From positions 272,053-336,052 of the forward strand of contig CBDEVW010000004.1 of the NCBI GenBank assembly GCA_965243755.1: a stretch of 64,000 nucleotides of DNA. The letters run 5' to 3'. Position numbers and translations under genes: made by a program. How positions within the stretch are numbered: the first letter of the stretch is position 1; each line of letters begins with the position of its first letter. The notes beneath the pieces were generated by a model. That model saw only the letters and a list, made by a program, of their open reading frames with translations. It searched no databases and had not been told where the DNA came from. Of this stretch, positions 2,759-36,861 are shown piece after piece. Source of the DNA: Cyclobacteriaceae bacterium (lineage in GTDB: Bacteria; Bacteroidota; Bacteroidia; Cytophagales; Cyclobacteriaceae).

Positions 2759-4141
2759 ATGGCAAGATTCATTCTATTAAAAAAGAGTTTTTATCAATCA
2801 GTACTTACGAAAATTGGTGTATTGGCACTTACAATGCTAATATTGTCCATACTATCCTACCTTATCATTAATAATAGCAAGGCACAACAATACCAAAGAG
2901 ATCTGGACCTTGTCAGTCATATGAAGGTTTTATCTCAACAGATAGGAATTGCCTCGTTGACCAATGAAAAAACAGCTCAATTGATCACACAATTTGATAG
3001 CTGCTACAGCAGGATCAATAGGAAAATTGAAGACCCTAAAACTTTAGATAAGCTTAATGTACATTGGCAGGCTTTTAAGAATTTGTTAGATGTTGAAACT
3101 GAACAATTGGTTTTGGTTGAATCTTCCAGGGAATTACTGCGACAATGTGAAGTAGTTTACAACAGTGCTTATTTGAAAAAAGAGGCAGAAAACAGGTTCA
3201 CCAATACCATAGTGATCATCATATTAAGTCTTTCAGCCTCAGTGATTGCTGTTGGAGCATTTGTCATGCAAAAACAAATGATCACACCTTTAAAGTCGAT
3301 TGTGAAGTTTTTGAGGGCCTTTGGCAATGGAGACCTTACGCATAAACTCAATCAGTCTATTCGGAATGAGATCGGTTATGTGGCCTATAATCTGGATATG
3401 GTCATTGATCAACTTTCCGAGATCATAAAAAAGGTAAATGGGCAATCGAAGCAACTTTTGGATGCCAGCGGCCCACTGACTTCCAATGCAGATAGCCTAA
3501 GTGTGAATGCCGCAGATTTGTCCAGCTCAGCAAGTGAAATTGCCTCCTTGATTGAGGAAATGACAGCCAGTATCGAATCAAATGTTCATACGACCACTAA
3601 TACCAACCAGGAAATCCTTAATGTACTCAAGGAGCTGGACCGATTGAAGAAACTGGTGACCGAAGGTACCAAGTCAGCCAAAGAGGTGAGGGAAAAGACC
3701 AAGATGATCAATATGATTGCCGGCCAAACGAATTTATTGGCGCTGAATGCTGCCATTGAGGCAAAAAGGGCAGGAGAGGCCGGAAAGGGTTTTGCAGTGG
3801 TGGCCCAGGAAGTTCGAAACCTGGCTGAACTCAGTAAACGAGCTGCGGATGATATCATTACCATTTCTGCCAGCAGGGTTACGCTGGCACAGGAAATAGA
3901 ACAACTTTTTGACCAGGTGGTGGAAATCATCAGGGAATCTTCCAAATCTATTGAAGCCATTACTACAGCAAGTCAGGAACAGAAAATCAGTACCCAACAG
4001 ATCAATTCGTCCATGCAGGGTTTAAACAATATTTCAATCTCCACTGAAAATGCAGCGGCAATACTGAAGGACTATGCCGACACCCTTGCCAGGATGTCGG
4101 TAGAACTCAATGAGATAGTTTCCGCTTTCAAAATCAGGTAA
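2759..4141 (+). CDS. Methyl-accepting chemotaxis protein (TM sensor, HAMP, MCP signalling domain)
   Basis: 460 aa with two hydrophobic segments. HAMP-like [23 protein letters not shown]. Highly conserved MCP hairpin tip [35 protein letters not shown]. Confidence 0.9.
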
Positions 4142-5078
4142 TTTCTTTAAAAATGCCAACACCTCGCTCTTCGTCTGAGCTGAGCCATCCACGATACATG
4201 CCTTCGGAATTAAAGGAAATGCCAATATGACCATCCGGGTCCACCGCTATGACACCACCTTCACCTCCCATTGCAACAAGTTTATTCTGAATCACTTCAT
4301 CCGCCGCTTCCTGCAGGCTCATTCCTTTGTATTTAACAAGTGCAGCAATATCATGTGCGACCACAGCGCGAATGAAGAATTCTCCATATCCGGTGCTGGA
4401 CACTGCACACGATTGATTGTCAGCAAAACAGCCACATCCAATTAATGAACTGTCACCAATTCTTCCATATTTTTTATTGGTGAGCCCTCCAGTAGATGTG
4501 CCGGCAGCAAGGTTATCATTCAGATCCAACGCCACTGCACCAACAGTCCCGAATTTTTTCTCACCATCATGATCTAGCAGCACTTTTCCTATCTTCTTGG
4601 CGGCCATCAATTGATTGTACCGGAAATCCGTATAGAAATAAACCGGATCAACCAGTTTCATGTGATGCTCTGCGGCGTACTGTTCCGCACCTTTTCCAGA
4701 GAGATAAACATATTCATCGTCATGCAGGATCTTTCTGGAAAGTACAATTGGGTTTTTAACCCGACTTATAGCAGAAACTGCGCCTGCTCTGGCAGTGGCA
4801 CCATCCATGATAGACGCTTCCATCTCGTGCGTCTCATCATTGGTGAATACTGAACCTTTACCAGCATTGAACAAGGGAGAGTCTTCCAAAGATTTGATAG
4901 TGGCCTCTACAGCATCCAGTGCTGTACCACCTACTTTCAATATACTTTCACCTGCATCTAATGCTTCGTTAAGTGCTGTTTTATATTGCTCCTCCAGTTG
5001 CGGAGTGATTTCATTTCTTAATAAAGTACCTGCACCACCATGGATGGCCAGGGCATATTTTCCTAACATACTACTCAA
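4134..5078 (-). CDS. iaaA: Isoaspartyl peptidase / L-asparaginase (Ntn hydrolase, IaaA type)
   Basis: 314 aa, colinear with E. coli IaaA as I recall it: [33 protein letters not shown], autoprocessing site [26 protein letters not shown]. Confidence 0.9.
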
Positions 5079-5121
5079 TATTTTTAATGTTTTTTCTATT
5101 TACCGGAGCAATGCTCCTTAT

Positions 5122-6516
5122 CTAAAAAGGTCCCCAATCGAATAATAGAACAGGTGGTATCAGCAATAGCATGGCAATAAGAAAGAATGTAATCATTACC
5201 GGGAGCATCCATCTCATCCATTTGTCGTAAGGGACTTTTCCCATGGCCAATACTCCCATTGTTACCCCACTGGTGGGAATGATCAGGTTGGTTAGCCCAT
5301 CACCAAATTGAAAAGCCAATACTGCTGTTTGCCTGCTGATTCCCAATAGATCACTCAATGGGCTCATTATTGGCATGGTCAATGCTGCTTGTCCTGACCC
5401 GGATGGAACAAACAGATTTAAAAAACTCTGCACAAGAAACATGGCTTGTACCGAAATATATGAAGGCAGGTCTTTTACCGAAGATGCAATATGATATAAA
5501 ATTGTATCAAGGATTTTGCCATCCTGGGCAATGATCAAAATGGCTTTAGAGAAGGCGATGACAAGTCCCGCAACCAAAATATCCTTCGCACCATCCACAA
5601 AAGAATCGGCAGCATCATTGGGTGACATTCTGTATATAATTGCACTGATTATGGCCAGAGCGAAAAACAGCCCACCAATTTCATTGATGTACCAACCAAG
5701 ATTACTGACGCCATAGATGAGCAAACCAATGGCAATGAAAAAAAGCGCAAGAATTATTTTCCTAGCGGGAGTGAATACGATCACATCAACCTGATCCAGT
5801 CGATTTTCTCTTTTTTGATCCACCTCATACATTGGGCTGACTGAAGGATTTTTTTCCAGCCGTTTGATATACTTCATGATGAAGAATATTGGAACCAGTG
5901 TTAGGATACCCCAACAAATGATACGATATCCTGATCCACTGAAGGGAGGCAATTCAGCTATACCTTGTGCGATACCAACGGTAAAAGGATTGCTGAACGC
6001 ACCAGCAAAGCCAGCTCCGGCACCAACGAATGGGATAGCCACCCCAACGATGGAATCATAGCCCAAAGCCAATGAAAGTGGGATAGTGATCAAAACGAAT
6101 ACAATTACTTCCTCACTCATACCAAATGTTGCCCCAGCCAGTGAAAACAAAGCAATGAGCGCTGGAATGATCACATTTTTTAATGCAGGCTTGCGTTTGC
6201 ACAACCTGATTAAGCTTTGCAGTGCTGCATTAATGGCTTGCGAGCGATTGATCACGGAAAATGCCCCTCCCACAATCAAAACAAATGCAATGATTTGACC
6301 AGCAGAAATAAAACCTTTCAAGGGACTTGTGAAAAACGCAAAGAAACCCTGAGGAGCCTGCTCGGTGACCTGATAGGAACCAGGCACCACCACTTCACGA
6401 CCACTATTGGTAATTCTTTCAAACTCACCCGCCGGGATCACCCAGGTAAGCCCGGTGAAAATGAGAAGAATAGCGATCAGTATGATCAGGGTATGGGGTA
6501 TTTTTTTTGCTGTCAT
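5122..6516 (-). CDS. yfcC: YfcC / DcuC-type (C4-dicarboxylate anaerobic carrier family) permease
   Basis: 464 aa and polytopic. The N-terminus PHTLIILIAILLIFTGLTWVIPAGEFERI is typical of the YfcC family. The start overlaps the upstream cyanophycinase stop by 4 nt (6513-6516). Confidence 0.8.
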   Translation of the reverse strand: MTAKKIPHTLIILIAILLIFTGLTWVIPAGEFERITNSGREVVVPGSYQVTEQAPQGFFAFFTSPLKGFISAGQIIAFVLIVGGAFSVINRSQAINAALQSLIRLCKRKPALKNVIIPALIALFSLAGATFGMSEEVIVFVLITIPLSLALGYDSIVGVAIPFVGAGAGFAGAFSNPFTVGIAQGIAELPPFSGSGYRIICWGILTLVPIFFIMKYIKRLEKNPSVSPMYEVDQKRENRLDQVDVIVFTPARKIILALFFIAIGLLIYGVSNLGWYINEIGGLFFALAIISAIIYRMSPNDAADSFVDGAKDILVAGLVIAFSKAILIIAQDGKILDTILYHIASSVKDLPSYISVQAMFLVQSFLNLFVPSGSGQAALTMPIMSPLSDLLGISRQTAVLAFQFGDGLTNLIIPTSGVTMGVLAMGKVPYDKWMRWMLPVMITFFLIAMLLLIPPVLLFDWGPF

Positions 6517-7367
6517 TCTATTGGAAATGATTGTTCAGAAGTAAATATGCTCATAATGAGCTGATTTGCACTCAACTTACCGTTAGGGTTACTTTTAATT
6601 CCATCTGGTGAGTGAAACACAAGTACCTGGGATTCACCAATTACAGTAGCCATCCCTTTCACTACTACAATAGCTGTCGATTCATCAATACCAACGCCCT
6701 TGTAGTCAGGGTTTTCCAGGACAGCACTTATCAATCGGTTATGTCTGCTTCTTTTTACAAAGTGTTGATCAATTATAGCTGTTTTGATGAACCCCAGGCC
6801 TTGTTTCAGTTCTATGTTGTTTGTTTCAATGTTGCGAAATGTGCTGTGATACTCAGGGTATTTCAGCTCATTTCCGGTAATCATTTTTTGACTCATCACT
6901 GCTGCCCCTGCACTTGTTCCTGCGATAACTCCTCCGTTTAGATAACATTTTTCAATGGCTTCCTGAATGGCTGTGCCACCGGCAATGTCCATGAATTTAT
7001 TCTGGTCACCACCTGTGATATAGATCAAACGTGCATTTTCAATGCTATCGGTCCGGGTTTTATCGATTGCCTCTCCTTTGTTAAAGTTGAATCCAACAAT
7101 ATTGGTTAATCCCTGTTCTGTGAATTGTTTTCCGGCATAATAAATTGCAGAATCAGGTTCGGAGCTGGACATTGGTAAAATAATGCCATATCCTCCGGAA
7201 TCCAATTGAGCTACCTTGATGAGCCTCTTTATCATTGAAGGAGGACGTTTGCCCCCTCCAATGATAAAGAGTTTGCCAGATGGCCATTCCTTTTGGGTTA
7301 ATGTTTCGGAATTTTGGCCCGTACAGCTTAGGATTATTAAAAGTGCAATTGCAGTGAGTACTCTCAT
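6513..7367 (-). CDS. cphE: Cyanophycinase (peptidase S51) with lipoprotein-type signal
   Basis: 284 aa with signal ..IILSC-TGQ. S51/cyanophycinase motif order: FIIGGGKRPP, ITGGDQNKF, nucleophile elbow GTSAGAAVM, IDQHFVKRSRHNRL. Confidence 0.85.
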   Translation of the reverse strand: MRVLTAIALLIILSCTGQNSETLTQKEWPSGKLFIIGGGKRPPSMIKRLIKVAQLDSGGYGIILPMSSSEPDSAIYYAGKQFTEQGLTNIVGFNFNKGEAIDKTRTDSIENARLIYITGGDQNKFMDIAGGTAIQEAIEKCYLNGGVIAGTSAGAAVMSQKMITGNELKYPEYHSTFRNIETNNIELKQGLGFIKTAIIDQHFVKRSRHNRLISAVLENPDYKGVGIDESTAIVVVKGMATVIGESQVLVFHSPDGIKSNPNGKLSANQLIMSIFTSEQSFPIE

Positions 7368-7422
7368 TTTTGGTGTTATTTGAAAATTGCTTTGTTACGG
7401 CCTACTTTTAGTAACCTAATCA

Positions 7423-8547
7423 CTATTCAATAAAAAAAAGTCCCCTTGGATCATTGTAATCTGCAGTAAGCGTCACTTGACCGGAACCATCAAGGTTGGC
7501 CATAAATACACTTCCTGAGTTTCTTTCGGTCCAGTATATTTTATCATTGGTGTTGTCAATCCCGATCCCATATACGCGGTTACCTGTATCCACAAGTGAT
7601 TCTATATTAGAACCGTCCAGGTTGGCTCTCATCAACTGGCCTGTGTCCGAATTATCAAATATAATTTTTTCATTGACCGGATCCACAGTGATACCATATC
7701 CAAAGCCTCCAGCAGTATAACCGATGATTCTGGTCACTCCACTGCCATCTACATTTCCTACCCAAACGGCTTCTGCATCAACTGCAACGCATGTGATGTA
7801 GAGGTCACCATTGTGGAGGTCTAAGCCTACTGGTAGTTCTCCGAGTCCATGTGTGGCATTGTCGTAAAGTACCGTGCTGGTTTTGGTACTAAGATCCACT
7901 TCCCATATGGCATTGATCCCTGTACCGCGATCAGCAACATAAACTTTGTTGTTGGGGATGTCAAGTGCTATGTCTCTCGGTGCTCCAAACACATCGCTGA
8001 TCACCTCAGAATTGCTTCCATCCAGATCTACTCTCATTAATGTAAGATCATCGTCGTTGGTGTAATAGATGTGTTCATTGACCGGATCATACGCAATACC
8101 AGTTCCATACGCTCCAATATCTATGGATCCTCCTCCAATTTCATTGATGCTTCCACCAGCTGCGTCAATAAAGAAGAGCCTTACCAATAAGGCATTCGGG
8201 TCCTTGATCGTGACCTGTTTTTCAATGAAATCCAGGTCATTGTCAGAAGTTACGGTCATTGAAACAGTGTAGGTGCCTGGGTTAGTATACAAATGAGAAG
8301 GGCTTGCCTCGGTAGAGGAGGTGCCATCACCGAAGTTCCATGCATACGCAACACCGCCAGCATCTTCAGTAAGGTAGGTGGTGTTACTAAATGCGACAGT
8401 AGCAGGAGCAAATCCTTCATTTTCAATGGTGAAGCTGTAGTCAGCCACTACCGAACTGGCCTGTGGCACTGGAAACTCGTCATCTCCACAGGCGCCCAGG
8501 GTTATTGAAAGTATCAGCGTTGCTATTATTGATTTTATGCTTTTCAT
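7423..8547 (-). CDS. Lipoprotein: PKD domain + YWTD (LDL-receptor class B type) beta-propeller
   Basis: 374 aa with lipobox LGAC followed by the acidic stretch GDDE. PKD signature WNFGDGTSSTEASPSHLYTNPGTYTVSMTV. Propeller blades: IYYTNDDDLTLMRVDLDGSN, VYVADRGTG, IIFDNSDTGQLMRANLDGSN, IYWTERNSGSVFMANLDGS. Confidence 0.8.
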   Translation of the reverse strand: MKSIKSIIATLILSITLGACGDDEFPVPQASSVVADYSFTIENEGFAPATVAFSNTTYLTEDAGGVAYAWNFGDGTSSTEASPSHLYTNPGTYTVSMTVTSDNDLDFIEKQVTIKDPNALLVRLFFIDAAGGSINEIGGGSIDIGAYGTGIAYDPVNEHIYYTNDDDLTLMRVDLDGSNSEVISDVFGAPRDIALDIPNNKVYVADRGTGINAIWEVDLSTKTSTVLYDNATHGLGELPVGLDLHNGDLYITCVAVDAEAVWVGNVDGSGVTRIIGYTAGGFGYGITVDPVNEKIIFDNSDTGQLMRANLDGSNIESLVDTGNRVYGIGIDNTNDKIYWTERNSGSVFMANLDGSGQVTLTADYNDPRGLFFIE

Positions 8548-8549
8548 GA

Positions 8550-9929
8550 TTATTCTGCTTTTCTTATGACCATACCTCTAATATCAACACCCGTTTCATT
8601 CACAATCTCTTCATTGCTACCATCCAGATTGGCTGCACGGATGACTCCATCCCGTCCGGCCCAATAAAACTTGCCACTCTCATTGTCAATGGCTATTCCA
8701 TAAGTGCGGTCAGTCGTATTTCCAACCTTCTCTACATTACTCCCATCGAGATCAGCTCTTAAAATCTGGCTGCCATCACTGTCATCAAAGTATATCTTAT
8801 CATTCACTTTATCCACTTCAATGCCATAGCCAAATCCTCCTGCTCCATAGTCAATGATTTTTGAGATGCCTGAGCCATCCGTACTGCCAGTCCATACTGT
8901 TTCAGCATCAAAATCAACAGCTGTGGCAAATACGGTCCCATTGTGAATGTCCAGACCAACAGGAAGGAGAAAGTTTGCGTCATCTACGACACTGTATAGT
9001 GCCGATTTTGAATTATCTGACAGATCAATGGCTGAGATCTGATCAGCACTTCGTTCAACCACATAGACCATATTATTGGAGATGTCCAGGGCAATGTCGC
9101 GCCCACCATTCAAACCAGTGGCAATTTCTACCTGGTTGGTTCCCAGAAGGTTATTTTTATACAGTATCGCACTATCGTCATCCGTATAATAGAATTCTTC
9201 ATTTTCTGCATCATATGCAAGTCCAAAACAGAAACCGGGTAAATCAAAGACATCTTCTACTACCGCAGCATCGCTCAGCGAAATTTTCCGAAGTTTCAGA
9301 TTATCATTATCGATAAAGTACAGCTCAAACTGATTGGGCTGGATGGTAATGACCCGTGAAGCATCACTTGAACCTCCTGTACCTGTTGCAGTTAGTGTTA
9401 CCGTATAATCACCAGCCGTTAAATATGTAAACGTAGGGTTGGTTTCAGTACTGGTGGAATTACCAGGATCACCAAATGACCAAAGCAAACTGGTGGCATT
9501 TTCGGTAGTGCTCATAAAGCTAACTGCCTGACCAACTTTCAGGTCATTTTCATTTTCTATGGTAAAACCAGGTGTAGGAATGATTCCAGCAATGGTTATG
9601 GTTTGAGACGTTACGTCTCTTTGCCCGTTTCCACTTGCTTCCAATGTAACAGTATAATCACCAGGAGTTTCATAAATATGAGTTACTGTTTCCCCAACAG
9701 CTGAAAGTCCATCTCCAAAAGTCCAGTTGAATGTTACCGCATTCTCTGAGGTACTGGCAGAAAAAGTAATGGATTCTCCTTCCATGAGAACGCTTTCATT
9801 GGAGATTTCAAATGAAGCAACCGGATTCAAAGAAGCGTCTTCATCTTCATTACACGACGTAAATAACGCCGCAATTGACAGCACGATAACACATCGTGAT
9901 AAGAGTGTATTGATATATTTAAAATTCAT
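8550..9929 (-). CDS. Lipoprotein: two PKD domains + YWTD-type beta-propeller (paralog of 7423-8547)
   Basis: 459 aa with lipobox FTSC followed by NEDED. Two PKD signatures (WTFGDGLSAVGETVTHIYETPGDYTVTL, WSFGDPGNSTSTETNPTFTYLTAGDYTVTL). Blades: FYYTDDDSAILYKNNLLG, VYVVERSADQISAIDL, IYFDDSDGSQILRADLDGSN, FYWAGRDGVIRAANLDGSN. Confidence 0.8.
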   Translation of the reverse strand: MNFKYINTLLSRCVIVLSIAALFTSCNEDEDASLNPVASFEISNESVLMEGESITFSASTSENAVTFNWTFGDGLSAVGETVTHIYETPGDYTVTLEASGNGQRDVTSQTITIAGIIPTPGFTIENENDLKVGQAVSFMSTTENATSLLWSFGDPGNSTSTETNPTFTYLTAGDYTVTLTATGTGGSSDASRVITIQPNQFELYFIDNDNLKLRKISLSDAAVVEDVFDLPGFCFGLAYDAENEEFYYTDDDSAILYKNNLLGTNQVEIATGLNGGRDIALDISNNMVYVVERSADQISAIDLSDNSKSALYSVVDDANFLLPVGLDIHNGTVFATAVDFDAETVWTGSTDGSGISKIIDYGAGGFGYGIEVDKVNDKIYFDDSDGSQILRADLDGSNVEKVGNTTDRTYGIAIDNESGKFYWAGRDGVIRAANLDGSNEEIVNETGVDIRGMVIRKAE

Positions 9930-9941
9930 GATTTCTATCTT

Positions 9942-11300
9942 TTAGTAAGAAGGATTCTGGATCAATGTCCCGTCAGTGATATTGATCTCTCTTTGTGGAA
10001 TTGGAAAGATGCGCCTGAAGGATTCTAACCCTCTGGTTGATTCCAACCGGTCAAGTCGCACCAAATCAAACCAGTAATGCCCCTCAAAAGCAAACTCTGC
10101 TCTTCGTTCATTCAGGAGAACATCAATTAACTGGCTCTCAGAAGCAACATTTGCAGCGGTCAAACTCGTCAGGCCTGCCCGGTTCCTGATTGTATTGATG
10201 TCTGGAAGCGCATCGGCTGGTGTACCTCCACTCATCATCGCTCTTGCTTCCCCTCTTATAAGATACATTTCTGATAACCTGAGCAAAATGGTATTACCAC
10301 CTTCATCTGCAGGTTCGCTTCCATATTTGGTACACCGTATAAAATTCCCAACTTGCTGGAACAATTGGCCTCTTTCAGCCTCATTGCTGCTCACAGGATC
10401 GAGAAATGATATGAGGTCTGTACTTACGGTTACTTCTGGTGGAGAAATGTACATTTCGATAGCCCACGCACTTGGGTCTTCGAGTGCAATAAAATTCAGC
10501 TCGAATATGGACTCTGCACTGCCTTCTGAAAGGTAAATTTCATTGTAGTCTTCGCTTAGACTATAACTGGAATTATTAATCACCTCGGTAGCTAGTTGTT
10601 CAGCTTCCTGGTATTCACGCTGATACAAATGGACCCTTGCCTTAAGTGCCTGAGCCGCTCCGGAAGAGGCGAAGAATTTGTCTCCATGACTTTCCAGTAA
10701 CTGAATGGCAAGATCCAGATCACTTTCTATTTGTGCATATGATAGGGATACGGTACTTCTTGCCGTTTCCTGAATACTCGATGAGGGGGTCAATGGCAGT
10801 GGAATACCGTAAGCAGAACCACCATCAAAGAATTCACCATATTGCCGGAGGGCATCAAAAAATGCCAGACTTCTCAGAAAGTATGCTGTGCCCAATAATC
10901 TATTTTCATCAGAAGCATCAAGGTCCAGTCCAGGTACTTTTTCAATGACACTGTTTGCAACATTTACCACATCGTATATTGCTACCCAGTTGTCCTGAAT
11001 ATGGAAATTGGATGTAGGCACTATACCAGTCTCCAGTTCTTTCCAAAACTGTTGAAATGCTGCCGCCCTACCATTTCCAGCTGCCATCTCTGTGGCCATA
11101 ATGAAGCGACCACCATAATAGTCACCATCTTGCAGGGCATTGTAGATTCCTATTACTGCGGCTTCAGCCGTTTGAAGATCCACAATAGCATTCTCATTGG
11201 AAATTAAAGTGGGAGGTTCCTGGTCGAGTAAGTCACATGCCGGAACTAACCATACCAGCATTACCATTGCAATTAGCGTATTTCTTGTTTGCTTTTTCAT
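9942..11300 (-). CDS. susD: SusD/RagB-family outer-membrane nutrient-binding lipoprotein
   Basis: Lies immediately downstream of SusC. Lipobox LVPAC. C-terminal ERRAEFAFEGHYWFDLVR motif typical of SusD-like proteins. The ATG at 11300 (MKKQTRN) is preferred over the track's TTG at 11324, which would overlap susC. Confidence 0.9.
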   Translation of the reverse strand: MKKQTRNTLIAMVMLVWLVPACDLLDQEPPTLISNENAIVDLQTAEAAVIGIYNALQDGDYYGGRFIMATEMAAGNGRAAAFQQFWKELETGIVPTSNFHIQDNWVAIYDVVNVANSVIEKVPGLDLDASDENRLLGTAYFLRSLAFFDALRQYGEFFDGGSAYGIPLPLTPSSSIQETARSTVSLSYAQIESDLDLAIQLLESHGDKFFASSGAAQALKARVHLYQREYQEAEQLATEVINNSSYSLSEDYNEIYLSEGSAESIFELNFIALEDPSAWAIEMYISPPEVTVSTDLISFLDPVSSNEAERGQLFQQVGNFIRCTKYGSEPADEGGNTILLRLSEMYLIRGEARAMMSGGTPADALPDINTIRNRAGLTSLTAANVASESQLIDVLLNERRAEFAFEGHYWFDLVRLDRLESTRGLESFRRIFPIPQREINITDGTLIQNPSY

Positions 11301-11313
11301 GATTGGTTCCATT

Positions 11314-14300
11314 TTAAAATTCAAAGTTTAACCCTACTGAATATGTTCTGGCTTGTCCCAGTGTACCAAAGTCTTCGCCTTGAAGTGTGTTGAGTGATTC
11401 ACCACTGCTGGTATTGGTACTTACTTCCGGATCAAAACCCAGGTAGTCGGTCCATGTGAGCAGGTTTTGTCCCTGGGCAAATATCATGGCATTTGACAGT
11501 TTGAGTTTTTGCAGGAGGGCAGCAGGAAGTCGATATGTAAGCTTCACATTTTTAAGTCTCACAAAGTCCCCATCCTCCAGGTATTGTGTGCTAAACCTCT
11601 GCCATTGTAATTGAGGGTTACCGGCATCTTCCGGCCCAACCATAGAAGGTCTTGGAATTTGAGTGATGTCACCGGGTTCACGCCAATAGTCTAAACTTCT
11701 TCTGGTTTGATTTCCATAAGGGATACCACTTCTCGTAGTACCATAATTTTCATAAGCATGACGGCTTTGATTAAAAATTTTATTGCCGCCACTGAATTGA
11801 AAGAAGACCGCTAGCGAGAGGTTTTTATAACTAAAAGTATTCGTGAATCCTCCAAAATAGGAGGGTAGTCCCGATCCCACCGCCTGGCGATCATCCAGGT
11901 TGATCAGGCCATCGCTGTTGATGTCTTCAAATACGGCATCTCCTGTTGTTGGGTCAACTCCCAGAAATTTGATCAAATAAAGCTGGCTCAGCGATTCATC
12001 TTCCAGAAGAATGAAATTTCTACTTAAAATTTGCCCATGATTCAGCACATCAACTACTCTATTTTGTAGTGTGGTGAAATTAATTCCTGTTGTCCATTGG
12101 AATTCTTTCCCGGAAATATTCTGGCTGTTGATGGCCAACTCAAATCCTTCATTTTCTATTTCTCCAATGTTGGAGGTGGTGCTGAAGAAACCCAGTGTTC
12201 CGGGCACATCTACATCCATAAGCAGATTAGTAGTGTTTTTCTTAAAATAATCTGCGACAATACTGACTTTGTTAAATAGAGACAGGTCTATTCCGACATC
12301 CAACTGAGCAGTTTGCTCCCAGCCTAATTTAGGATTACCCAGAACAGATGGGTTGGATCCTCCAATTCCATTGTATGAAGAAGCACCCCACAAGCCCTGC
12401 CAGGTGTAGTTTCCAATTTCAGCATTTCCAACCAGGCCGTAGCTGGCACGTAGTTTTCCATCTGAGAATATATTTCGAATGCCTTCAAAGAATGCCTCGT
12501 TGGAGAACCGCCATCCGATGGACCCAGAAGGCAACAACGCATAGCGATTGTCTGGTCCAAATCTTGATGACCCATCCATTCGTACAGATCCCTGAATCAA
12601 ATACTTTCCCTGAAAATCGTAGGTAACCCTTCCAAGGTAGGATAAAAATCCATAGGCGGTGGCACTTGAAGTACCAGTAGTGTTTGCTGCTGCACCAATT
12701 TTAATGATTTGATTATTGGGGAAGCCATTACCTGAAATCTCGGAAAGATCCATTTGAGATTCCTGAAAGCTAAAGCCACCTAAAATATTGAAATGGTGAT
12801 CCTCACCAATGGTGGTCGCATAGGTCAAGGTGTTTTCATTGATCCATACCAACTCCTCCAAAGTAGCGAATATGCCAGCGCCAGTAGGGGCCTCATTACT
12901 GCCTACAGGAACAAATGATTCCTCCATTAAGGAGTTGTAATCAGCTGACCAGGTAGTCTTAAAAGTAAGGTTGTTCAGGATCTCCCATTCCACATAGGTG
13001 GAGGCAAGAATTCTGTTAGATGCAGAATTATTCACATATTGTTCAGCAATGTATAAGGGGTTTTCCAATGCCCACCAGCCATTATATGAAAATGGGTTAG
13101 TGTAGGTGCCATCATCATTTTTTAGTGGAGCGGTTGGATCCCACGCCTGTGCATTGACTACTACACCATATTCATCATTTTCGTTGATAGTTCGTTGATG
13201 GACACCTCGGGTAAGTAAGACATTCGTCCCAACTCCAACTTTCTCATTTAGAGAGTGATCAAGCCTCAAACGGGTACTGAATCGTTCAAACGCCTGGCCC
13301 AACTGTATGCCTTTTTGGTCAAAATAGTTGCCGGAAATCACGTATCTGGTACTCTCATTTCCTCCTGAAAGGCTGAGGTCAACATTTTGGGTAATTCCAG
13401 TTCTGAATATTTCATCATACACATTATGATTGGGAAGGTTTGGATCATTTGGATCTCCCAACACATCATTCCAATAATTTTCGCCTAACCCATCAAATGC
13501 AGCTGCTGCGTTCATGAACTGTATCCATTCACTTGAACTCATCATTTCAGGGGTATTGCTTATTTCTGATACTCCCATGCTATAGCCTACATTGACTTTG
13601 GTTTTGCCAACCTGTCCACTTTTGGTTGTGATGATAATTACTCCATTAGCACCCCGTGTACCATAAATTGCCGCGGCGCTGGCATCCTTCAATACTGAAA
13701 TAGATTCAATTTCATTTGGATTGATATTAGCCAATGGGTTAATGGGTTGAATATTGCTATTCAGAGCAGACTGATTGCCAGTAAGAATCGGTATGCCATC
13801 CACAACGATCAAGGGTTGGCTACTGGCACCAATAGAGGTTACACCACGGATATTCAAATTGAATGCAGAACCAGGTGTGGCAGACGCGCTTCCAATATAA
13901 ACACCTGACAATTTGCCCTGTATCGCACCATCGAAACTGTAGGTTGCTGCTACATTAGCTACATCTTCATTATCGACACTTGCTATTGAGCTGGTAATGT
14001 CACGTTTCTTTTGTGTGCCATATCCCACAACTACGATTTCATCTAATTCTGTTACATCTTCAGATAGGGTGACATTCAGTATATCCCCGGTGATGTTCAA
14101 TTCATTGGAGACATATCCAACAAATGAAAAAATCAGTACAGAGGAATCATCCGTCACTTCAAGCTTGTATTGACCATCGAAATCTGTGATCGTCCCTTTT
14201 GAAGTTCCTTTGATGACTATGCTTACCCCGGGTAGCGGCTCTCCCTTTTCATCGGTCACCTGGCCAGATACAATTGTCTGGGCCCATCCGGTAGTTGCTG

Positions 14301-14340
14301 TCAGTAATAACAGCAGGTTAAGTAATAGTTTTATTTTCAT
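11314..14340 (-). CDS. susC: SusC/RagA-family TonB-linked outer-membrane transporter
   Basis: 1008 aa. Signal peptide, then a carboxypeptidase-regulatory-like domain (VSGQVTDEKGEPLPGVSIVIKGTSKGTITDFDGQYKL). Plug region (VVVGYGTQKKRDITSSI; ISVLKDASAAAIYGTRGANGVIIITTK). Beta-barrel ends in YSVGLNFEF. Confidence 0.95.
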   Translation of the reverse strand: MKIKLLLNLLLLLTATTGWAQTIVSGQVTDEKGEPLPGVSIVIKGTSKGTITDFDGQYKLEVTDDSSVLIFSFVGYVSNELNITGDILNVTLSEDVTELDEIVVVGYGTQKKRDITSSIASVDNEDVANVAATYSFDGAIQGKLSGVYIGSASATPGSAFNLNIRGVTSIGASSQPLIVVDGIPILTGNQSALNSNIQPINPLANINPNEIESISVLKDASAAAIYGTRGANGVIIITTKSGQVGKTKVNVGYSMGVSEISNTPEMMSSSEWIQFMNAAAAFDGLGENYWNDVLGDPNDPNLPNHNVYDEIFRTGITQNVDLSLSGGNESTRYVISGNYFDQKGIQLGQAFERFSTRLRLDHSLNEKVGVGTNVLLTRGVHQRTINENDEYGVVVNAQAWDPTAPLKNDDGTYTNPFSYNGWWALENPLYIAEQYVNNSASNRILASTYVEWEILNNLTFKTTWSADYNSLMEESFVPVGSNEAPTGAGIFATLEELVWINENTLTYATTIGEDHHFNILGGFSFQESQMDLSEISGNGFPNNQIIKIGAAANTTGTSSATAYGFLSYLGRVTYDFQGKYLIQGSVRMDGSSRFGPDNRYALLPSGSIGWRFSNEAFFEGIRNIFSDGKLRASYGLVGNAEIGNYTWQGLWGASSYNGIGGSNPSVLGNPKLGWEQTAQLDVGIDLSLFNKVSIVADYFKKNTTNLLMDVDVPGTLGFFSTTSNIGEIENEGFELAINSQNISGKEFQWTTGINFTTLQNRVVDVLNHGQILSRNFILLEDESLSQLYLIKFLGVDPTTGDAVFEDINSDGLINLDDRQAVGSGLPSYFGGFTNTFSYKNLSLAVFFQFSGGNKIFNQSRHAYENYGTTRSGIPYGNQTRRSLDYWREPGDITQIPRPSMVGPEDAGNPQLQWQRFSTQYLEDGDFVRLKNVKLTYRLPAALLQKLKLSNAMIFAQGQNLLTWTDYLGFDPEVSTNTSSGESLNTLQGEDFGTLGQARTYSVGLNFEF

Positions 14341-14434
14341 GCTTGGTATAATTTAAATTTCAATTGAGCAGCCAGTGAGTAGCTACTTTTAATAGTGGTC
14401 GCTCCGGGTAAGGAGCTGACGTCATTGAAAGATA

Positions 14435-14462
14435 CCTAGCAATCGAAGATAGGCTGCAGGTT
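14435..14462 (-). promoter_or_regulatory. Conserved 28-nt intergenic motif, copy 1 (94 nt upstream of susC start)
   Basis: CCTAGCAATCGAAGATAGGCTGCAGGTT, 24/28 identical to copy 3. Its 3' part (GGCTGCA, 14452-14458) pairs with TGCAGCC at 14481-14487. Confidence 0.55.
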
Positions 14463-14529
14463 CATTAAACCCAGTGATTTTGCAGCCTGAAGCAGAATGA
14501 TTTTAGTTTTAGCGCCTAACATCTTTACA

Positions 14530-16494
14530 TTAATTAAAATATAGTTTTTGAGTAAACATATATTGTTGATCCTGGTCTTTGATCACCAGTATTTTCAATC
14601 CGGAGATAAGAAGTTGATCGGTTATTTCCAGATTGCCATTAATCTGCTGCATGCTCACGCATCGACCGGTAAGGTCAAAGAGCTGCACTTGTAAATTTTT
14701 ACTATTCGGGTTGTTGATGAAAAGTCCTTTACCCGTGTTAATAATTTCTATCTGTAAATGTTTCCCGGATTTTGTGATCGTTGAGGGGATTTCCAGCTCA
14801 TAGTCAGGGTCATCTGTTGGAACTGGAGTCCCAATATCAAAGGTGCTTGTCCCTACCATAACCTGATATGTAAACCGGTCATAAGCGACGACATTTCTTA
14901 CGGTACTAAAATCGTGTCGGGAGCTTTCGTTATTTATAAGTAAAGTGGGCAGATCTCCATATGTCTGAAGCATGTTCCTGCCATTCAACTGACCCAATTT
15001 CACATAGCTTCCTTCCATTAAGTAAAGTCCATATTTCAGTGATTGTTGGGCCATCATAAATGGAATGGAAGAAGTTGTGTTTTCATAATATTCCGTGGTT
15101 GACCGATCAATAGTATTGGGCATTACGGCAGTAGTTTTCAGCAAACCGAGCCCTTCTCGAAAATCCAGCCGGTTCCTGTAGGATGCTGCCGGATCCGTCA
15201 GATGGTTGGTCACGAAGACCGGGCCGGAAAAACGGCTGTCCTGTCCCATAAACCCAATGATCATTTCATTTCTGAACAAATGACTGTGTAGTAGTTCGCC
15301 TGTAGGTCCACCTTCTAAAAAGGAAAATAACTGATCATCATTATTTCCGACAAACAATACTTTTCTCGACTGACGAATATTGTTTCTGATTGAAATACTA
15401 TCCACATGATTATAAGTGTCCAGAGTAGGAAGCACGGTGACATGGGGAGCACCATAGTTGTGAAGCCTGCTTTTGATGGCATTTGCGGTTGATGTAACTC
15501 CGGACACAATAACTATTGCCTCCGACGACTCATGCTCATTGACAAATGCTTCTAAAAAATTGAGGTTATCGCCAATTTCATCATTTCCGCTTAGCAATAA
15601 GGTGTAATTACCATTTTCTTCGATTTGCGTTACCTCGGTATTTAATGCAGGCGCTGAAATAATTTCGAAATTGAGGAGATTGAATGACTGACCATCGGTT
15701 AGCGAAAAAACATTCAACGAGTCAGATGTAAAAGTGTGGGCTTCCCTGGTAAATGAGGAAGGGGTAATTACAGTAACTGCACCAGTCCCATAAACTTGTC
15801 CTACGTTATTACTATCGATACATAATGCGGTTTGATCGTCCACTCCAATTCCACCAATAGAGGCTCCATTATTGAAATCCCAATGGGCCATGAACGCCAT
15901 TAGTCGGAAAATTCTTCCTCTTTCAATGAAATGGGTGTCAAAAATGTAATCTGGTTGAAGGTTAAGAAAATCTTTTTTGAGATTGAAAAGTGGAGAGGTA
16001 ATGTCCACTAAACCATCATCCGGATAAACAGAACCATTGGATGCTGTAAACACCACCTGGGATAGTATTGCCATACCTGCAGACGTTCCACCAATGACTC
16101 CACCATCATTGAACTTTTGGGTGATAATATCCATGAGGTTGGTTCCTTTGTACGTCTCATAATAATTCGACTGGTCGCCACCTTTGAAAAAGAAAAAATC
16201 AAATTCTAATAATTCATTTTCCAGTGCTTGCGAGTTCGCATATTCACTGGAATTGATCTGAAAGTTTGTGGCCTCTGATGCGCCAAGGGATATGAAATAC
16301 TCGGGAAGGTCTTCGGTTTCACTGTTGAAACTAATAATGGCTACTTTGTGATTGGCAGCTTGCTCAATGCCCCAGGAGTACGGAGTATCACTCCATGATC
16401 CCTCAGCACCACCGCCAACAAGTAACAACTTTCCCTGTCCAAACAACAGGTTTGAAAAGAATAAACCAAAAAGTAATAAATAGATTTTTTGCAT
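14530..16494 (-). CDS. Secreted tandem peptidase-S51 (cyanophycinase-like) protein with putative T9SS C-terminal sorting domain
   Basis: 654 aa with a signal peptide. The first S51 module is intact (LLLVGGGAEGS, FFFKGGDQSNYY, GGTSAGMAILS, FDTHFIERGRIFRL). The second module has the same motif order but degenerate residues (LLLSGNDE, LFVGNNDDQ, GFMGQDSRFSG). The last ~75 aa (..NNPNSKNLQVQLFDLTGRCV..SGLKILVIKDQ..QKLYFN) resemble a Por-secretion tail. Confidence 0.8.
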   Translation of the reverse strand: MQKIYLLLFGLFFSNLLFGQGKLLLVGGGAEGSWSDTPYSWGIEQAANHKVAIISFNSETEDLPEYFISLGASEATNFQINSSEYANSQALENELLEFDFFFFKGGDQSNYYETYKGTNLMDIITQKFNDGGVIGGTSAGMAILSQVVFTASNGSVYPDDGLVDITSPLFNLKKDFLNLQPDYIFDTHFIERGRIFRLMAFMAHWDFNNGASIGGIGVDDQTALCIDSNNVGQVYGTGAVTVITPSSFTREAHTFTSDSLNVFSLTDGQSFNLLNFEIISAPALNTEVTQIEENGNYTLLLSGNDEIGDNLNFLEAFVNEHESSEAIVIVSGVTSTANAIKSRLHNYGAPHVTVLPTLDTYNHVDSISIRNNIRQSRKVLFVGNNDDQLFSFLEGGPTGELLHSHLFRNEMIIGFMGQDSRFSGPVFVTNHLTDPAASYRNRLDFREGLGLLKTTAVMPNTIDRSTTEYYENTTSSIPFMMAQQSLKYGLYLMEGSYVKLGQLNGRNMLQTYGDLPTLLINNESSRHDFSTVRNVVAYDRFTYQVMVGTSTFDIGTPVPTDDPDYELEIPSTITKSGKHLQIEIINTGKGLFINNPNSKNLQVQLFDLTGRCVSMQQINGNLEITDQLLISGLKILVIKDQDQQYMFTQKLYFN

Positions 16495-16541
16495 CGTAGT
16501 AACAATATAAAGTAGATAAATATCCGGACTTTATAGTGTTT

Positions 16542-16569
16542 ACTAGCAGTTGAAAATGGGTTGAAGATT
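16542..16569 (-). promoter_or_regulatory. Conserved 28-nt intergenic motif, copy 2 (47 nt upstream of the tandem-S51 gene start)
   Basis: ACTAGCAGTTGAAAATGGGTTGAAGATT, 23/28 identical to copy 3. Confidence 0.55.
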
Positions 16570-16733
16570 TTGCAATGAAAGGGACTTTACATAGGAGATT
16601 TTGCCTATGAAAACACTAAGAGGTTTGTATGTTAGTTGTCCGTTCATTACATGAATATGACCCTAATATTAAGAGGAATTCTGGAAAAATAAAATTTTTT
16701 GCAATGAATAATATCGGATGAAGAGGTGGAAAT

Positions 16734-16775
16734 GAAACCGTGAATCATGGTTTTTAAGTCATAAATCACGGTTTC
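16734..16775 (-). terminator. Hairpin downstream of S51 lipoprotein gene (possible terminator/attenuator)
   Basis: Perfect 10-nt inverted repeat GAAACCGTGA (16734-16743) / TCACGGTTTC (16766-16775) with a 22-nt loop, 8 nt past the stop at 16783. The T tract on the minus strand is weak. Confidence 0.4.
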
Positions 16776-16782
16776 AGCTGTT

Positions 16783-17835
16783 TTAATTGGTCCTAAATCT
16801 TCCTCTGTCCACATAAAAATACTCCCATGATCCACCACTGCCGGAATTCCAGTTGGTCAGCCAGAAATACCTGGATCCGCTGGTGTTTGCCAGAATTTTG
16901 TACACCTTAACGGCTTGTCTGTTTCTATACCAGTCCAGTTTTTGGCCTGGAGAACAAACTTCAGGACCCTGATTGTTCTGTTGCAGGAAAAAGGCATACC
17001 CATAGCCATATATAGAAGCTTTTCCATTACTATCGATACAAACAGCGGTTTCTTCATCCACTCCGATCCCCTTAGCTGACCACCCCCAATCAGTATTTGC
17101 TCTGGCAAGAAAGGCCATATGTCTGCCTCTTCTGTCCGGGTTGTCGTAGTGTGTGTCTGTGATGGTGTTACCCAGGTATGGGTTGTTCAGGAAATCACTT
17201 CCTCCAAGTGTGAGGTAGTGGTTATAGGGATTTCGTAATGCTTCTCTGGACCTAATGGTGCCATTTTCCGCACTAAAATAACCTTCACCCTGAATGGCAC
17301 ACCCGGCACTTGTACCTCCAATTGGTACGTTTTTAGTGTTTCTTAAGTAATTAATGGCATCTTCCACTTTGGTGTTTTTCCAGTAATTCACATAATCCCA
17401 CTGATCGCCTCCGGCAATGAAAAGCGCCTCTGCATCCCTGATGGTTTGTTCCACCTGGGAGTTATTGGCGAGACTTCTGCTATCAATAAGCAATGTTTCT
17501 ACAGAATTGGCATTGCCCAGGTCATAGATGTACTGATTATATCCGGTCCCACCAGATGCCCGAATGACTACAAAGTCACCACCCCCGGCTTTGTTGAGCA
17601 TCCATTCTATGGCTTCATCCACATCGGGACCACCACCCATTAAAACTGTCCCTCCGGAAGTGGAAGTATTGACATCCTGCGTGCTACCAACGATCCCTAT
17701 GGATGCTGGTGAACTACCACCTGCGGCCGACGGAACTTCCGGCAGCTGATCAGTAGTAGAGAGCTCCTCCTGACATGCTGAAAACAGCAGTACAGCAATT
17801 AGTGAAAACAAAGGTTTTCTGATTGAATTGTACAT
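16783..17835 (-). CDS. Peptidase S51 (cyanophycinase-like) lipoprotein
   Basis: 350 aa with lipobox LFSAC followed by QEEL. Motifs: VLMGGGPDVDEA, FIAGGDQWDYV, GGTSAGCAIQ, TDTHYDNPDRRGRHMAFL. Confidence 0.8.
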   Translation of the reverse strand: MYNSIRKPLFSLIAVLLFSACQEELSTTDQLPEVPSAAGGSSPASIGIVGSTQDVNTSTSGGTVLMGGGPDVDEAIEWMLNKAGGGDFVVIRASGGTGYNQYIYDLGNANSVETLLIDSRSLANNSQVEQTIRDAEALFIAGGDQWDYVNYWKNTKVEDAINYLRNTKNVPIGGTSAGCAIQGEGYFSAENGTIRSREALRNPYNHYLTLGGSDFLNNPYLGNTITDTHYDNPDRRGRHMAFLARANTDWGWSAKGIGVDEETAVCIDSNGKASIYGYGYAFFLQQNNQGPEVCSPGQKLDWYRNRQAVKVYKILANTSGSRYFWLTNWNSGSGGSWEYFYVDRGRFRTN

Positions 17836-17975
17836 AATTACAATGTTTGGTTAGAAATAGATTGCAAAAAAGATGGGCTTCAAATCCCGGTTTGGAATTC
17901 GATAATATGAGACTTCCAACAAGACAGCTTTAGTTGCCTGTTTTACTTAGTGGATATGAAGCTTTATGGAGATGT

Positions 17976-18003
17976 CCTAGCAGTTGAAAATTGGCTGCAG
18001 GTT
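17976..18003 (-). promoter_or_regulatory. Conserved 28-nt intergenic motif, copy 3 (140 nt upstream of S51 lipoprotein gene start)
   Basis: CCTAGCAGTTGAAAATTGGCTGCAGGTT. The left flank (CTTTATGGAGATGT) also resembles the flank of copy 2 (CTTTATAGTGTTTA). Confidence 0.55.
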
Positions 18004-18219
18004 TCTGAGATGTACTGGTTTTACAGGCGTAGCAAAGACATGCTTAAGAGTGCCTGAATATGTAGATATGGTACATTCCATGTGTGGAATATAAGACGCC
18101 TAAAAAATTAAACCAAACAAAGTACCGAAAAATCCTGTCAATAAGAATAATATTTTGATATAATTAATAATTCAGAATAATATACCTTACAAGAACTAAG
18201 TTGGGCTAGGAAATATAAA

Positions 18220-36220: not shown

Positions 36221-36861
36221 TCTGCCAGTCCATTTTCAATGGCATACCTCACCAACCCTGCAGAGTTCTTTACCTGAAGTTTGCTGATGAGGTTTTTTTT
36301 ATGGGTATGAACTGTGTGTGTGCTGATAAACAAAGTGTCCGCTATTTCTTTGGCGGTATATTCCTCCGCCAGGTACCGAAGGATTTCTTTTTCTCTGCGA
36401 CTCAATTTTACGTTCAAAGTTTGGCTTTCGCCATGGAATACCTGGTTCATGTAGGATTCTTTTACTTCCCTCGAAAAATATTTATTGCCGGCATACAATG
36501 TTTCCAACGCTTCCATGAGCTCTCCTTTTTCGGCATTCTTCAACAAATATCCATCCACCTCTTTTTTGATAAGCTTCTCTATTTTATCAGGGTCATTGTG
36601 TGTGCTGAGGATTAACGTTTTAATGTGAGGATAATCTTTCTTGATGATACTATGAAGCGCTATGCCATCCATCTGTGGCATGCTGATGTCTGTAACCACA
36701 ATATCAGGTTTGATATGGTCCAGTTGGTCCAGCAGTTCTTTGGCTGAAGTCGCCTTACAAGCAATGTTGATATGTTGATCCCTTTCAAAAATAGCAGATA
36801 AGCCATCCAGAAACATGGCATGGTCATCTACCAGCGCTATGTTAATGATTTCATTACTCAT
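36217..36861 (-). CDS. NarL/FixJ (LuxR)-family response regulator
   Basis: 214 aa. Receiver domain (IALVDDH, VVTDISMP, K in ..DGYLLK). LuxR HTH REKEILRYLAEEYTAKEIADTLFISTHTVHTHKKNL. Confidence 0.9.
   Translation of the reverse strand: MSNEIINIALVDDHAMFLDGLSAIFERDQHINIACKATSAKELLDQLDHIKPDIVVTDISMPQMDGIALHSIIKKDYPHIKTLILSTHNDPDKIEKLIKKEVDGYLLKNAEKGELMEALETLYAGNKYFSREVKESYMNQVFHGESQTLNVKLSRREKEILRYLAEEYTAKEIADTLFISTHTVHTHKKNLISKLQVKNSAGLVRYAIENGLAD

Follow-up and report, generated by a model that had tools for sequence, protein, structure and literature searches.

A 2017 abstract by Ben Hania and co-workers reportedly describes a cyanophycin transport complex homologous to polysaccharide utilization loci (PULs). 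A PUL-like cyanophycin utilization locus (CUL) has been proposed for Salinivirga cyanobacteriivorans L21-Spi-D4 (Ben Hania et al. 2017, Environ Microbiol 19:1134, as cited by PMC10206079), and PMC6243061 credits Salinivirga with one monomeric protein of peptidase family S51 and one S51 protein carrying a Por secretion domain. More generally, where cphA1 is missing from a genome, clusters that pair a cyanophycinase with IaaA or IadA are interpreted as scavenging systems (PMC10206079). Here we describe a locus of nine co-directional genes on the minus strand of a 64,000-nucleotide (nt) stretch of the genome of a Cyclobacteriaceae bacterium (GenBank assembly GCA_965243755.1, contig CBDEVW010000004.1, positions 272,053 to 336,052), hereafter the window. 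We consider it likely that these genes form a Cytophagales-type cyanophycin utilization locus in three transcription units, each with a conserved leader small open reading frame (ORF). The locus represents the Cytophagales version of a system that had been predicted earlier, and as such its concept is not new; its most original feature is the set of small ORFs, whose newness we judge against Pfam, NCBIfam and Rfam.

Gene content and conservation of the locus

All nine genes listed in the initial annotation are present, in its order and at its coordinates (together 4134-17835), and Pfam and NCBIfam uphold their families. Read in the direction of transcription, the first putative unit is the gene of a 350-amino-acid (aa) S51 lipoprotein, here called S51a (16783..17835, minus strand, as are all features of the locus; Pfam Peptidase_S51, a TIGR02069 score and a lipobox), and the second that of a 654-aa S51 protein with a type IX secretion system (T9SS) tail (14530..16494; Pfam, NCBIfam, AlphaFold and a fold match). 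The third is headed by a SusC/RagA-type TonB-dependent transporter of 1008 aa (11314..14340; Pfam, and 883.6 bits on the NCBIfam model TIGR04056), followed by a SusD-family lipoprotein matching SusD_RagB and SusD-like_3 in the Pfam and NCBIfam scans (9942..11324; 460 aa as called, the real start being likely the ATG at 11300, MKKQTRN...). Downstream of these lie two lipoproteins with a YWTD-type beta-propeller, one with two PKD domains (8550..9929; 459 aa) and one with a single PKD domain (7423..8547; 374 aa), both with an isoelectric point (pI) of 4.05. Both have Pfam matches to PKD and to Ldl_recept_b, DUF5050 or NHL, their best sequence matches in the PDB are the YWTD propellers of LRP4, LRP2 and LRP6, and we consider them candidate surface substrate-binding proteins.

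The remaining genes encode a 284-aa S51 lipoprotein (6513..7367; TIGR02069 above its cut-off, residue alignment), a 464-aa inner-membrane permease of the YfcC/DcuC family (5122..6516; 364 bits on Pfam DcuC and 388 on NF008611, an NCBIfam model named 'putative basic amino acid antiporter') and a 314-aa IaaA-type isoaspartyl peptidase, an Ntn hydrolase (4134..5078). The last scores 360 bits on Asparaginase_2 and 356 bits on NF007589, below that model's equivalog cut-off of 567, and aligns over its full length with the Escherichia coli isoaspartyl peptidase (E=1.2e-96); its Gly-Thr autoprocessing site is present, with Thr178 aligned to residue 1 of solved beta subunits, and it has no signal peptide. 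Spacing is short or overlapping, as first described, at six of the eight junctions, including the overlap (ATGA) of the stop of the 284-aa S51 gene with the yfcC start and the 43 nt between yfcC and iaaA, both of which can be read directly in the sequence; the other two junctions do not fit that description, being gaps of 288 and 189 nt that each hold a conserved small ORF. Domain scans of the nine genes and their immediate flanks with Pfam and NCBIfam agree with the initial annotation that no glycoside hydrolase, lyase, esterase or sulfatase is present. A SusC/SusD pair thus occurs without a carbohydrate-active enzyme (CAZyme), and the locus is PUL-like in architecture only.

The arrangement recurs well beyond the window. 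Homologs of the T9SS S51 protein number 532; most come from Cytophagales, and most carry a Por_Secre_tail. When each species was scanned through a single genome, 198 relatives of this protein emerged, the best 80 loci were compared with the nine window proteins, and presence was counted in the 49 loci with enough flank: SusC was found in 35, SusD in 34, a separate 284-aa-type S51 in 32, propeller proteins in 29 and YfcC in 18, the last count being limited by flank length. In the closest genome, the Cyclobacteriaceae bacterium metagenome-assembled genome (MAG) OZ245848.1, all nine genes are colinear. The order T9SS S51, SusC, SusD, propeller, propeller, 284-aa S51, with YfcC and IaaA in some cases, is found in Marivirga sericea DSM 4125, Fulvivirga kasyanovii and many MAGs, so that in this survey of SusCD, S51 and IaaA co-occurrence gene order is kept across genera. 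Chryseolinea serpens DSM 24574 and Pseudochryseolinea flava share the order through the 284-aa S51, with no YfcC or IaaA found in their flanks, and rearranged versions occur in Bacteroidales MAGs. The S51a-type gene lies between yfcC and iaaA in Reichenbachiella and beside yfcC in Phaeodactylibacter, and stands alone in Hymenobacter and one Flavobacteriaceae genome; since its position varies among genera, it has been recruited to the system more than once. A complete outside-to-cytoplasm pathway would be conserved in many Cytophagales and Saprospiraceae, and its presence in cultured type strains makes the prediction testable immediately.

Small ORFs ahead of each unit

An element of about 50 nt is repeated upstream of each of the three units and is the 3' end of a small ORF. 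Small ORF 1 (17977..18081; 34 aa, MECTISTYSGTLKHVFATPVKPVHLRNLQPIFNC-stop) lies 141 nt upstream of the S51a gene, small ORF 2 (16543..16647; 34 aa, MNGQLTYKPLSVFIGKISYVKSLSLQNLQPIFNC-stop) lies 48 nt upstream of the T9SS S51 gene within the 288-nt gap, and small ORF 3 (14436..14522; 28 aa, MLGAKTKIILLQAAKSLGLMNLQPIFDC-stop) begins 7 nt past the T9SS S51 stop and lies 95 nt upstream of susC within the 189-nt gap. We found 41 such ORFs in 22 loci, ranging from 21 to 43 aa and with unrelated N-termini, and the family ending over the last 14 residues is near-invariant: K-x-x-x-L-x-(N/G)-L-Q-P-I-F-(D/N)-C-stop. Cultured carriers of the small ORFs include Marivirga sericea DSM 4125, Fulvivirga kasyanovii JCM 16186 and Phaeodactylibacter luteus, whereas Chryseolinea serpens DSM 24574 has none. 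The small ORFs have no match in Pfam, NCBIfam or Rfam.

The C-termini of these ORFs are under selection at the level of the peptide. Among 46 unique small-ORF sequences, entropy at codon positions 1, 2 and 3 of the last 14 codons is 0.84, 0.40 and 1.45; in the 30 nt past the stop it is 1.82, and ahead of the conserved Lys 1.84. Pairwise differences comprise 3970 synonymous and 1182 non-synonymous changes. Leu(-7) is invariant yet written with five codons (TTG, CTT, CTG, TTA, CTA), Pro uses all four of its codons, and the stop is TAG in 34 cases, TAA in eight and TGA in four. A promoter or operator, or an RNA hairpin, was also considered as the main explanation of the repeated element and rejected: when 16 copies from upstream of susC were aligned without gaps, invariant columns fell on every third base, every copy ends in a stop, and Leu, Pro and stop are kept through synonymous codons. 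Rfam has no match to the element.

The genes that follow these ORFs belong to one set. A profile search returned 69 called proteins with the same ending, and the four contexts examined among these protein-database matches all include genes of the cyanophycin-type loci: three are full loci, and in the fourth only a protein of about 290 aa with a T9SS tail follows the small ORF. In Phaeodactylibacter one small ORF is followed by a 289-aa T9SS protein, an S51a-type enzyme and YfcC, and a divergent second small ORF by SusC, SusD and IaaA; the other contexts are a SusCD-propeller locus, an IaaA gene and a 290-aa T9SS protein. An unbiased search of metagenome contigs for the DNA pattern yielded 47 matches, 35 of them with a classifiable downstream ORF, and all 35 of these fall in the same gene set (17 SusC, nine T9SS proteins of about 300 aa, five IaaA, three T9SS S51 and one of S51a type), the other 12 being contig ends, downstream ORFs too short to classify or chance matches without the (N/G)-L context. 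SusC genes with a small ORF head cyanophycin-type loci in the genomic loci examined. The T9SS protein of about 290-300 aa, whose C-terminal domain matches FlgD_ig or Cleaved_Adhesin, is a recurrent member of the small-ORF gene set in Saprospiraceae, Salinivirgaceae and nine metagenome loci; it has no homolog in the window.

The position of the small ORFs is similarly regular. The small-ORF stop precedes the T9SS S51 start by 46-60 nt in most lineages, two having up to 83 nt, and the susC start mostly by 70-100 nt (up to 178 nt). An exact Bacteroidetes -7 box (TAnnTTTG) is present in the 120 nt ahead of 28% of the small ORFs, compared with a background of 5%, often 13-14 nt before the ATG, and this enrichment suggests that the small ORF is the first translated item on each transcript. 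When eight spacers were folded with dinucleotide-shuffle controls, six gave a helix whose 5' arm holds the final codon of the small ORF together with its stop and whose 3' arm adjoins or takes in the next AUG, at z-scores of -2.6 to -4.8. In the window, a predicted RNA hairpin runs from the stop of small ORF 2 to just before the AUG at 16494 (16497..16548; -14.4 kcal/mol, z -4.03), and in a second predicted structure the region around the small ORF 3 stop is paired with the nucleotides that immediately precede the susC start codon at 14340 (14338..14441; -30.3 kcal/mol, z -4.40); elsewhere the values are -4.78 in Fulvivirga, -4.34 in Marivirga aurantiaca, and -4.47 and -2.58 in two MAGs. The sequences of the helix arms differ between lineages.

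Because of their variable N-termini, the conservation of the last 14 residues up to the stop, the fixed distance to the next gene and the pairing of stop with AUG, we consider the small ORFs to be candidate ribosome-arrest leader peptides. In an unpaused state, RNA around the small-ORF stop would pair with the region before the next AUG, as predicted for the T9SS S51 and susC spacers, and a ribosome pausing at that stop would keep the helix open and so allow translation of, or read-through into, the gene that follows; pausing might be governed by a product, for instance Arg or beta-Asp-Arg. Leader arrest peptides are known from TnaC (responding to Trp), SpeFL (ornithine), the fungal arginine attenuator peptide and the Erm and Cat leaders. 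Like these, the small ORFs are short 5' ORFs with about 14 conserved C-terminal residues and a predicted downstream RNA structure involving the stop region and the next start site; they differ in having no sequence similarity to any of these leaders and in their host phylum, the Bacteroidota, which initiates translation largely without a Shine-Dalgarno lead. We infer both the arrest and any ligand for it from these patterns. It is possible, if rather doubtful, that the small ORFs constitute a new Bacteroidota family of arrest peptides, in which stalling at the stop codon by Arg or beta-Asp-Arg would turn on a dispersed cyanophycin-scavenging regulon (SusCD, the T9SS and surface S51 proteins, the T9SS protein of about 300 aa, and IaaA).

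The principal alternative is that the small ORFs encode a trans-acting small protein, such as a signal, a chaperone-like partner or a transporter subunit, or are mere upstream ORFs for translational coupling. Conservation of the peptide, after all, shows only that the product or its translation matters, stalling is a prediction, and two of the eight spacers (that of S51a in the window and that of Marivirga sericea) lack significant structure. These two spacers also count against the leader reading, as does the absence of the small ORF from the Chryseolinea-type and Bacteroidales loci, which shows that it is not essential to the system. Against the alternative, there are up to three of these ORFs per locus, one to a unit and with unrelated N-termini on products of 21-43 aa, only the last 14 residues are conserved, precisely as far as the stop codon, the distance to the next AUG is held constant for both the T9SS S51 and susC genes, and the pairing of stop with AUG recurs with different sequences in different lineages. 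Such a pattern resembles TnaC-, SpeFL- or Erm-type leaders and not a folded small protein, and no signal peptide is apparent, so that we regard this alternative as unlikely.

If the arrest-leader reading is correct, a nutrient polymer would be sensed by the ribosome itself and not by a hybrid two-component system (HTCS) or a sigma/anti-sigma pair; for the first time a SusCD system would be linked to a sensor of this kind, and the peptides would offer a new tool for studying the control of translation in a phylum that initiates without Shine-Dalgarno pairing. LQPIFDC-stop is in addition a simple sequence marker for the whole regulon in metagenomes.

The S51 enzymes, their substrate and the proposed relay

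Scores on family models place the three S51 paralogs with the cyanophycinases. On the cyanophycinase model TIGR02069 (equivalog cut-off 126.6 bits) the 284-aa protein scores 149.5 bits, the T9SS S51 protein 115 and S51a 63.2, the first being the sole paralog above the cut-off, and on the dipeptidase model for PepE (NF003642, cut-off 156 bits) the corresponding results are 35.2 bits, no match and 22.8 bits. All three paralogs thus fare far better on the cyanophycinase than on the PepE profile, and their closest solved structures, by sequence as well as by fold, are cyanophycinases, ahead of PepE. Identity to the CphB and CphE cyanophycinases is 19-34%. The 350-aa family to which S51a belongs is large and is annotated by NCBI as cyanophycinase. 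Assemblies of bdelloid rotifers (Rotaria spp., Adineta vaga) also contain 57-65% identical members of this family, one of them on an 18-Mb scaffold, which may reflect horizontal transfer into rotifers or contamination.

The residues described as critical in cyanophycinase are largely retained. According to the summary of Law et al. 2009 given in PMC3235067, these are the triad Ser132, His174 and Glu201 and the pocket residues Gln101, Asp172, Gln173, Arg178, Arg180 and Arg183; in extracellular CphE, Thr replaces Gln173 (PMC3235067). When solved CphB was aligned with orthologs of each paralog from several genera, the equivalents of Ser132, His174, Gln101, Asp172, Arg180 and Arg183 were invariant across all three paralog families. 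The 284-aa type keeps all nine key residues of CphB, with a D-Q-H motif; the N-terminal domain of the T9SS S51 protein keeps all pocket residues but has D-T-H, with Thr at position 173, and Asp in place of Glu201; and the 350-aa S51a has the Ser, His, Glu, Gln101, Asp172, Arg180 and Arg183 equivalents, D-T-H, and Pro at the Arg178 position. By this marker the exported enzymes (S51a and the T9SS S51 protein) bear the CphE-type signature and the probably periplasmic 284-aa enzyme the CphB-type one, which differs from the initial description of the 284-aa lipoprotein as CphE-like.

The 654-aa protein has four parts: a Sec signal, a cyanophycinase-like domain, a degenerate S51-like domain and a T9SS C-terminal domain. 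The cyanophycinase-like domain (approximately residues 20-288, nt 15631-16437; Pfam/NCBIfam and alignment) is intact. The tandem S51 arrangement first proposed for this protein stands for this domain and fails for the second (approximately residues 289-565, nt 14800-15630), which is only remotely similar to S51 (E=7.6e-4 on TIGR02069 when taken alone, E=0.0056 against the first domain in hhalign). This second domain has the same alpha/beta secondary-structure pattern and an invariant E-N pair but no conserved Ser or His, and a true second peptidase was rejected on these grounds; the domain is possibly a substrate-binding module. An AlphaFold model of the whole protein from a 26-sequence alignment (predicted local distance difference test [pLDDT] 89.7) has its best PDB matches among cyanophycinases, ahead of PepE, whereas a single-sequence model of the second half was too poor for use (pLDDT 38.7). 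The T9SS tail (approximately residues 580-654), also named at the outset, falls short on TIGR04183 (21.2 bits against a cut-off of 23), but PF18962 is recorded in most homologs and the C-terminal fold matches the corresponding domains of mirolase, NucA and RemA at probability 1.00.

Sorting signals divide the lipoproteins in two. The post-Cys sequences are all as the initial annotation quoted them. Acidic residues follow the lipobox Cys in S51a (FSAC then QEEL), SusD (VPAC then DLLDQE) and both propeller proteins (CNEDED and CGDDE), and the mature surface proteins have pI values of 4.05-4.9. Acidic residues after the Cys are reportedly a surface-export signal in Bacteroidota, as is said to have been described by Lauber in 2016 and Valguarnera in 2018. 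In the 284-aa S51 protein the post-Cys sequence is non-acidic (CTGQNS) and the mature form is neutral in charge, which suggests that this enzyme is probably periplasmic.

From domains and sorting signals we infer a substrate, cellular locations and a direction of flow as follows. The T9SS-exported S51 protein and the surface S51 lipoprotein would attack released cyanophycin granules, the degenerate S51-like domain perhaps holding the polymer for the active domain; SusD and the two very acidic PKD-propeller lipoproteins would capture soluble fragments, which SusC would import. In the periplasm the 284-aa cyanophycinase would trim these fragments to beta-Asp-Arg dipeptides, YfcC would carry the dipeptides over the inner membrane, and cytoplasmic IaaA would split them into Asp and Arg. 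The assignment of the locus to cyanophycin, a beta-Asp-Arg polyamide, with a relay from outside to inside as initially suggested, is well supported in silico by the S51 scores, the pocket residues, IaaA, synteny and the published homologous locus, and we judge it quite probably correct.

Several observations weigh against this assignment. Known cyanophycinases are exopeptidases releasing dipeptides (PMC3235067, PMC10206079), and dipeptides need no SusCD importer; an unproven oligomer-producing step is therefore required, with oligomers released or passed on by the exported enzymes or by the degenerate domain. The 284-aa protein clears the cyanophycinase cut-off only narrowly (true CphB scores about 310 bits) and the other two paralogs lie below it; Pro occupies the Arg178 position in S51a, and in the T9SS enzyme family Asp takes the place of Glu201. 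The best solved-structure match of the 284-aa protein, PDB 7uqv, is titled 'pseudo-CphB' by its depositors; it keeps the canonical residues and scores 285.8 bits on TIGR02069, so that membership in this family is no guarantee of activity on cyanophycin, and the model was rejected as a means of separating true from pseudo cyanophycinases. Finally, a literature search found no assay of any protein of the locus or of an ortholog, and no experimental characterisation. The initial annotation knew of no characterised SusCD/T9SS system for cyanophycin, and on that point it stands, none having been found in the literature; the idea of such a system, however, dates from 2017 (Ben Hania et al.).

Some of these same points lend themselves to another substrate. 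The locus might scavenge Asp-containing or isoaspartyl peptides from decaying protein, by means of PepE-like S51 enzymes, a RagAB-like SusCD pair and an IaaA acting on the isoAsp dipeptides of aged protein: family S51 includes dipeptidase E, weak PepE matches were seen, IaaA and IadA are promiscuous enzymes that also serve processes other than cyanophycin metabolism (PMC10206079), two of the three paralogs lie below the cyanophycinase cut-off and the closest solved relative of the third is the one labelled pseudo-CphB. All three paralogs, however, score much higher on cyanophycinase than on PepE and keep the Arg/Asp/Gln cyanophycinase pocket, Pfam/NCBIfam scans of the nine genes revealed no general endopeptidase, and the strict co-occurrence across genera of secreted, surface and periplasmic S51 proteins with IaaA and a basic-amino-acid-type permease favours a single beta-Asp polymer over bulk protein, which makes this source of peptides improbable. 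A different polyamide (Lys-rich or cyanophycin-like material from non-cyanobacterial CphA1, or poly-aspartate), with Arg-cyanophycin a side substrate at best, would accommodate the divergence of the S51a and T9SS paralogs from CphB and CphE at Arg178 or Glu201, their scores far below equivalog level, and the wide occurrence of cyanophycin synthetases outside cyanobacteria, with Lys able to replace Arg (PMC10206079), but is very improbable given that the equivalents of the Arg-binding Asp172 and of Gln101 are invariant, that the 284-aa enzyme has all nine CphB residues, and that the homologous locus, in its published outline, comes from a specialist scavenger of cyanobacteria.

Should cyanophycin, the polymer in which cyanobacteria store nitrogen, indeed be the substrate, the locus would bear on a large pool of fixed nitrogen that is freed when cyanobacterial blooms and mats decay. 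The Bacteroidota are main degraders of particles, and their route to this polymer has been predicted once, with no test found in the literature.

Just 3' of the S51a stop, a 17-bp inverted repeat (16733..16776; 88% complementary, 10-nt loop), found in an inverted-repeat search, forms a terminator-like hairpin that would part the S51a unit from the second; it has no clear U-run, and Rfam gave only spurious miRNA-like matches. Genes directly adjoining the locus specify an MCP-signal protein, a BlaR1/TonB_C protein, an AIR-synthase-like protein and one for Fe-S assembly; no transcription-factor gene was seen in the flanks inspected in the window, Marivirga or Chryseolinea, and no HTCS, SusR or extracytoplasmic function (ECF)/anti-sigma regulator adjoins the locus in the window. 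The MCPsignal-domain protein (2759-4141, plus strand; 460 aa) is convergent with iaaA, the 3' end of which it overlaps by 8 nt; MCP-type proteins are unusual for gliding, non-flagellated Bacteroidota. Further away, a 1127-aa sensor with Reg_prop/Y_Y_Y propellers and HisKA/HATPase domains, in which no receiver or HTH domain was detected (32837-36220, plus strand), lies beside a TPR-HisKA_3 kinase (36854-38995, minus strand), the pair being about 15 kb from the locus and without evident link to it.

Comparison with known systems

The individual enzymes have known counterparts. CphB of Synechocystis (PDB 3EN0/7UQW) and CphE of Pseudomonas anguilliseptica and P. alcaligenes share with the window enzymes the S51 fold, the Ser-His-acid triad and the Gln101, Asp172, Arg180 and Arg183 equivalents, but are cytoplasmic or Sec-secreted, whereas the window enzymes are lipoproteins or probable T9SS cargo, one of them fused to a degenerate domain and one without Arg178. 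At the level of the pathway, the scavenging clusters of Proteobacteria and Firmicutes follow the same logic of a cyanophycinase, a dipeptide hydrolase (IaaA, IadA or CphZ) and an amino-acid transporter, in genomes that do not have to produce cyanophycin themselves (PMC10206079, PMC9974463). In contrast to the window, they rely on one secreted enzyme and on transporters of the inner membrane, of ABC or other type, and have no SusCD, no T9SS and no second enzyme in the periplasm.

In classical SusCD loci, as in the RagAB peptide importer of Porphyromonas gingivalis, a SusC/SusD core is combined with acidic-signal surface lipoproteins, binding proteins and periplasmic finishing enzymes. The window has the same core and proteins predicted to be of these kinds; it differs from these loci in having no CAZymes, in a substrate that would be a polyamide, and in lacking an adjoining HTCS, SusR or ECF/anti-sigma system.

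The closest relative is the Salinivirga CUL. A locus in a Salinivirgaceae MAG, which encodes a T9SS S51 protein, an IadA-like amidohydrolase, SusD-like_2, SusC, a 287-aa T9SS protein and a 291-aa S51 protein, matches the CUL as far as published descriptions of the latter extend, and the S51 proteins of this genome are 34% and 52% identical to those of the window. Within the same limits of those descriptions, the Salinivirga CUL and the window share SusC/SusD, a two-domain T9SS S51 protein, an S51 protein of about 290 aa, an isoaspartyl dipeptidase and the lack of CAZymes. Judged against that outline, the isoaspartyl enzyme of the window is IaaA and not of IadA type, its SusD matches SusD_RagB and SusD-like_3 and not SusD-like_2, and it is without the T9SS protein of about 290 aa; what it adds are the two PKD-propeller lipoproteins, YfcC, a third S51 protein in the form of a surface lipoprotein, and the leader small ORFs.

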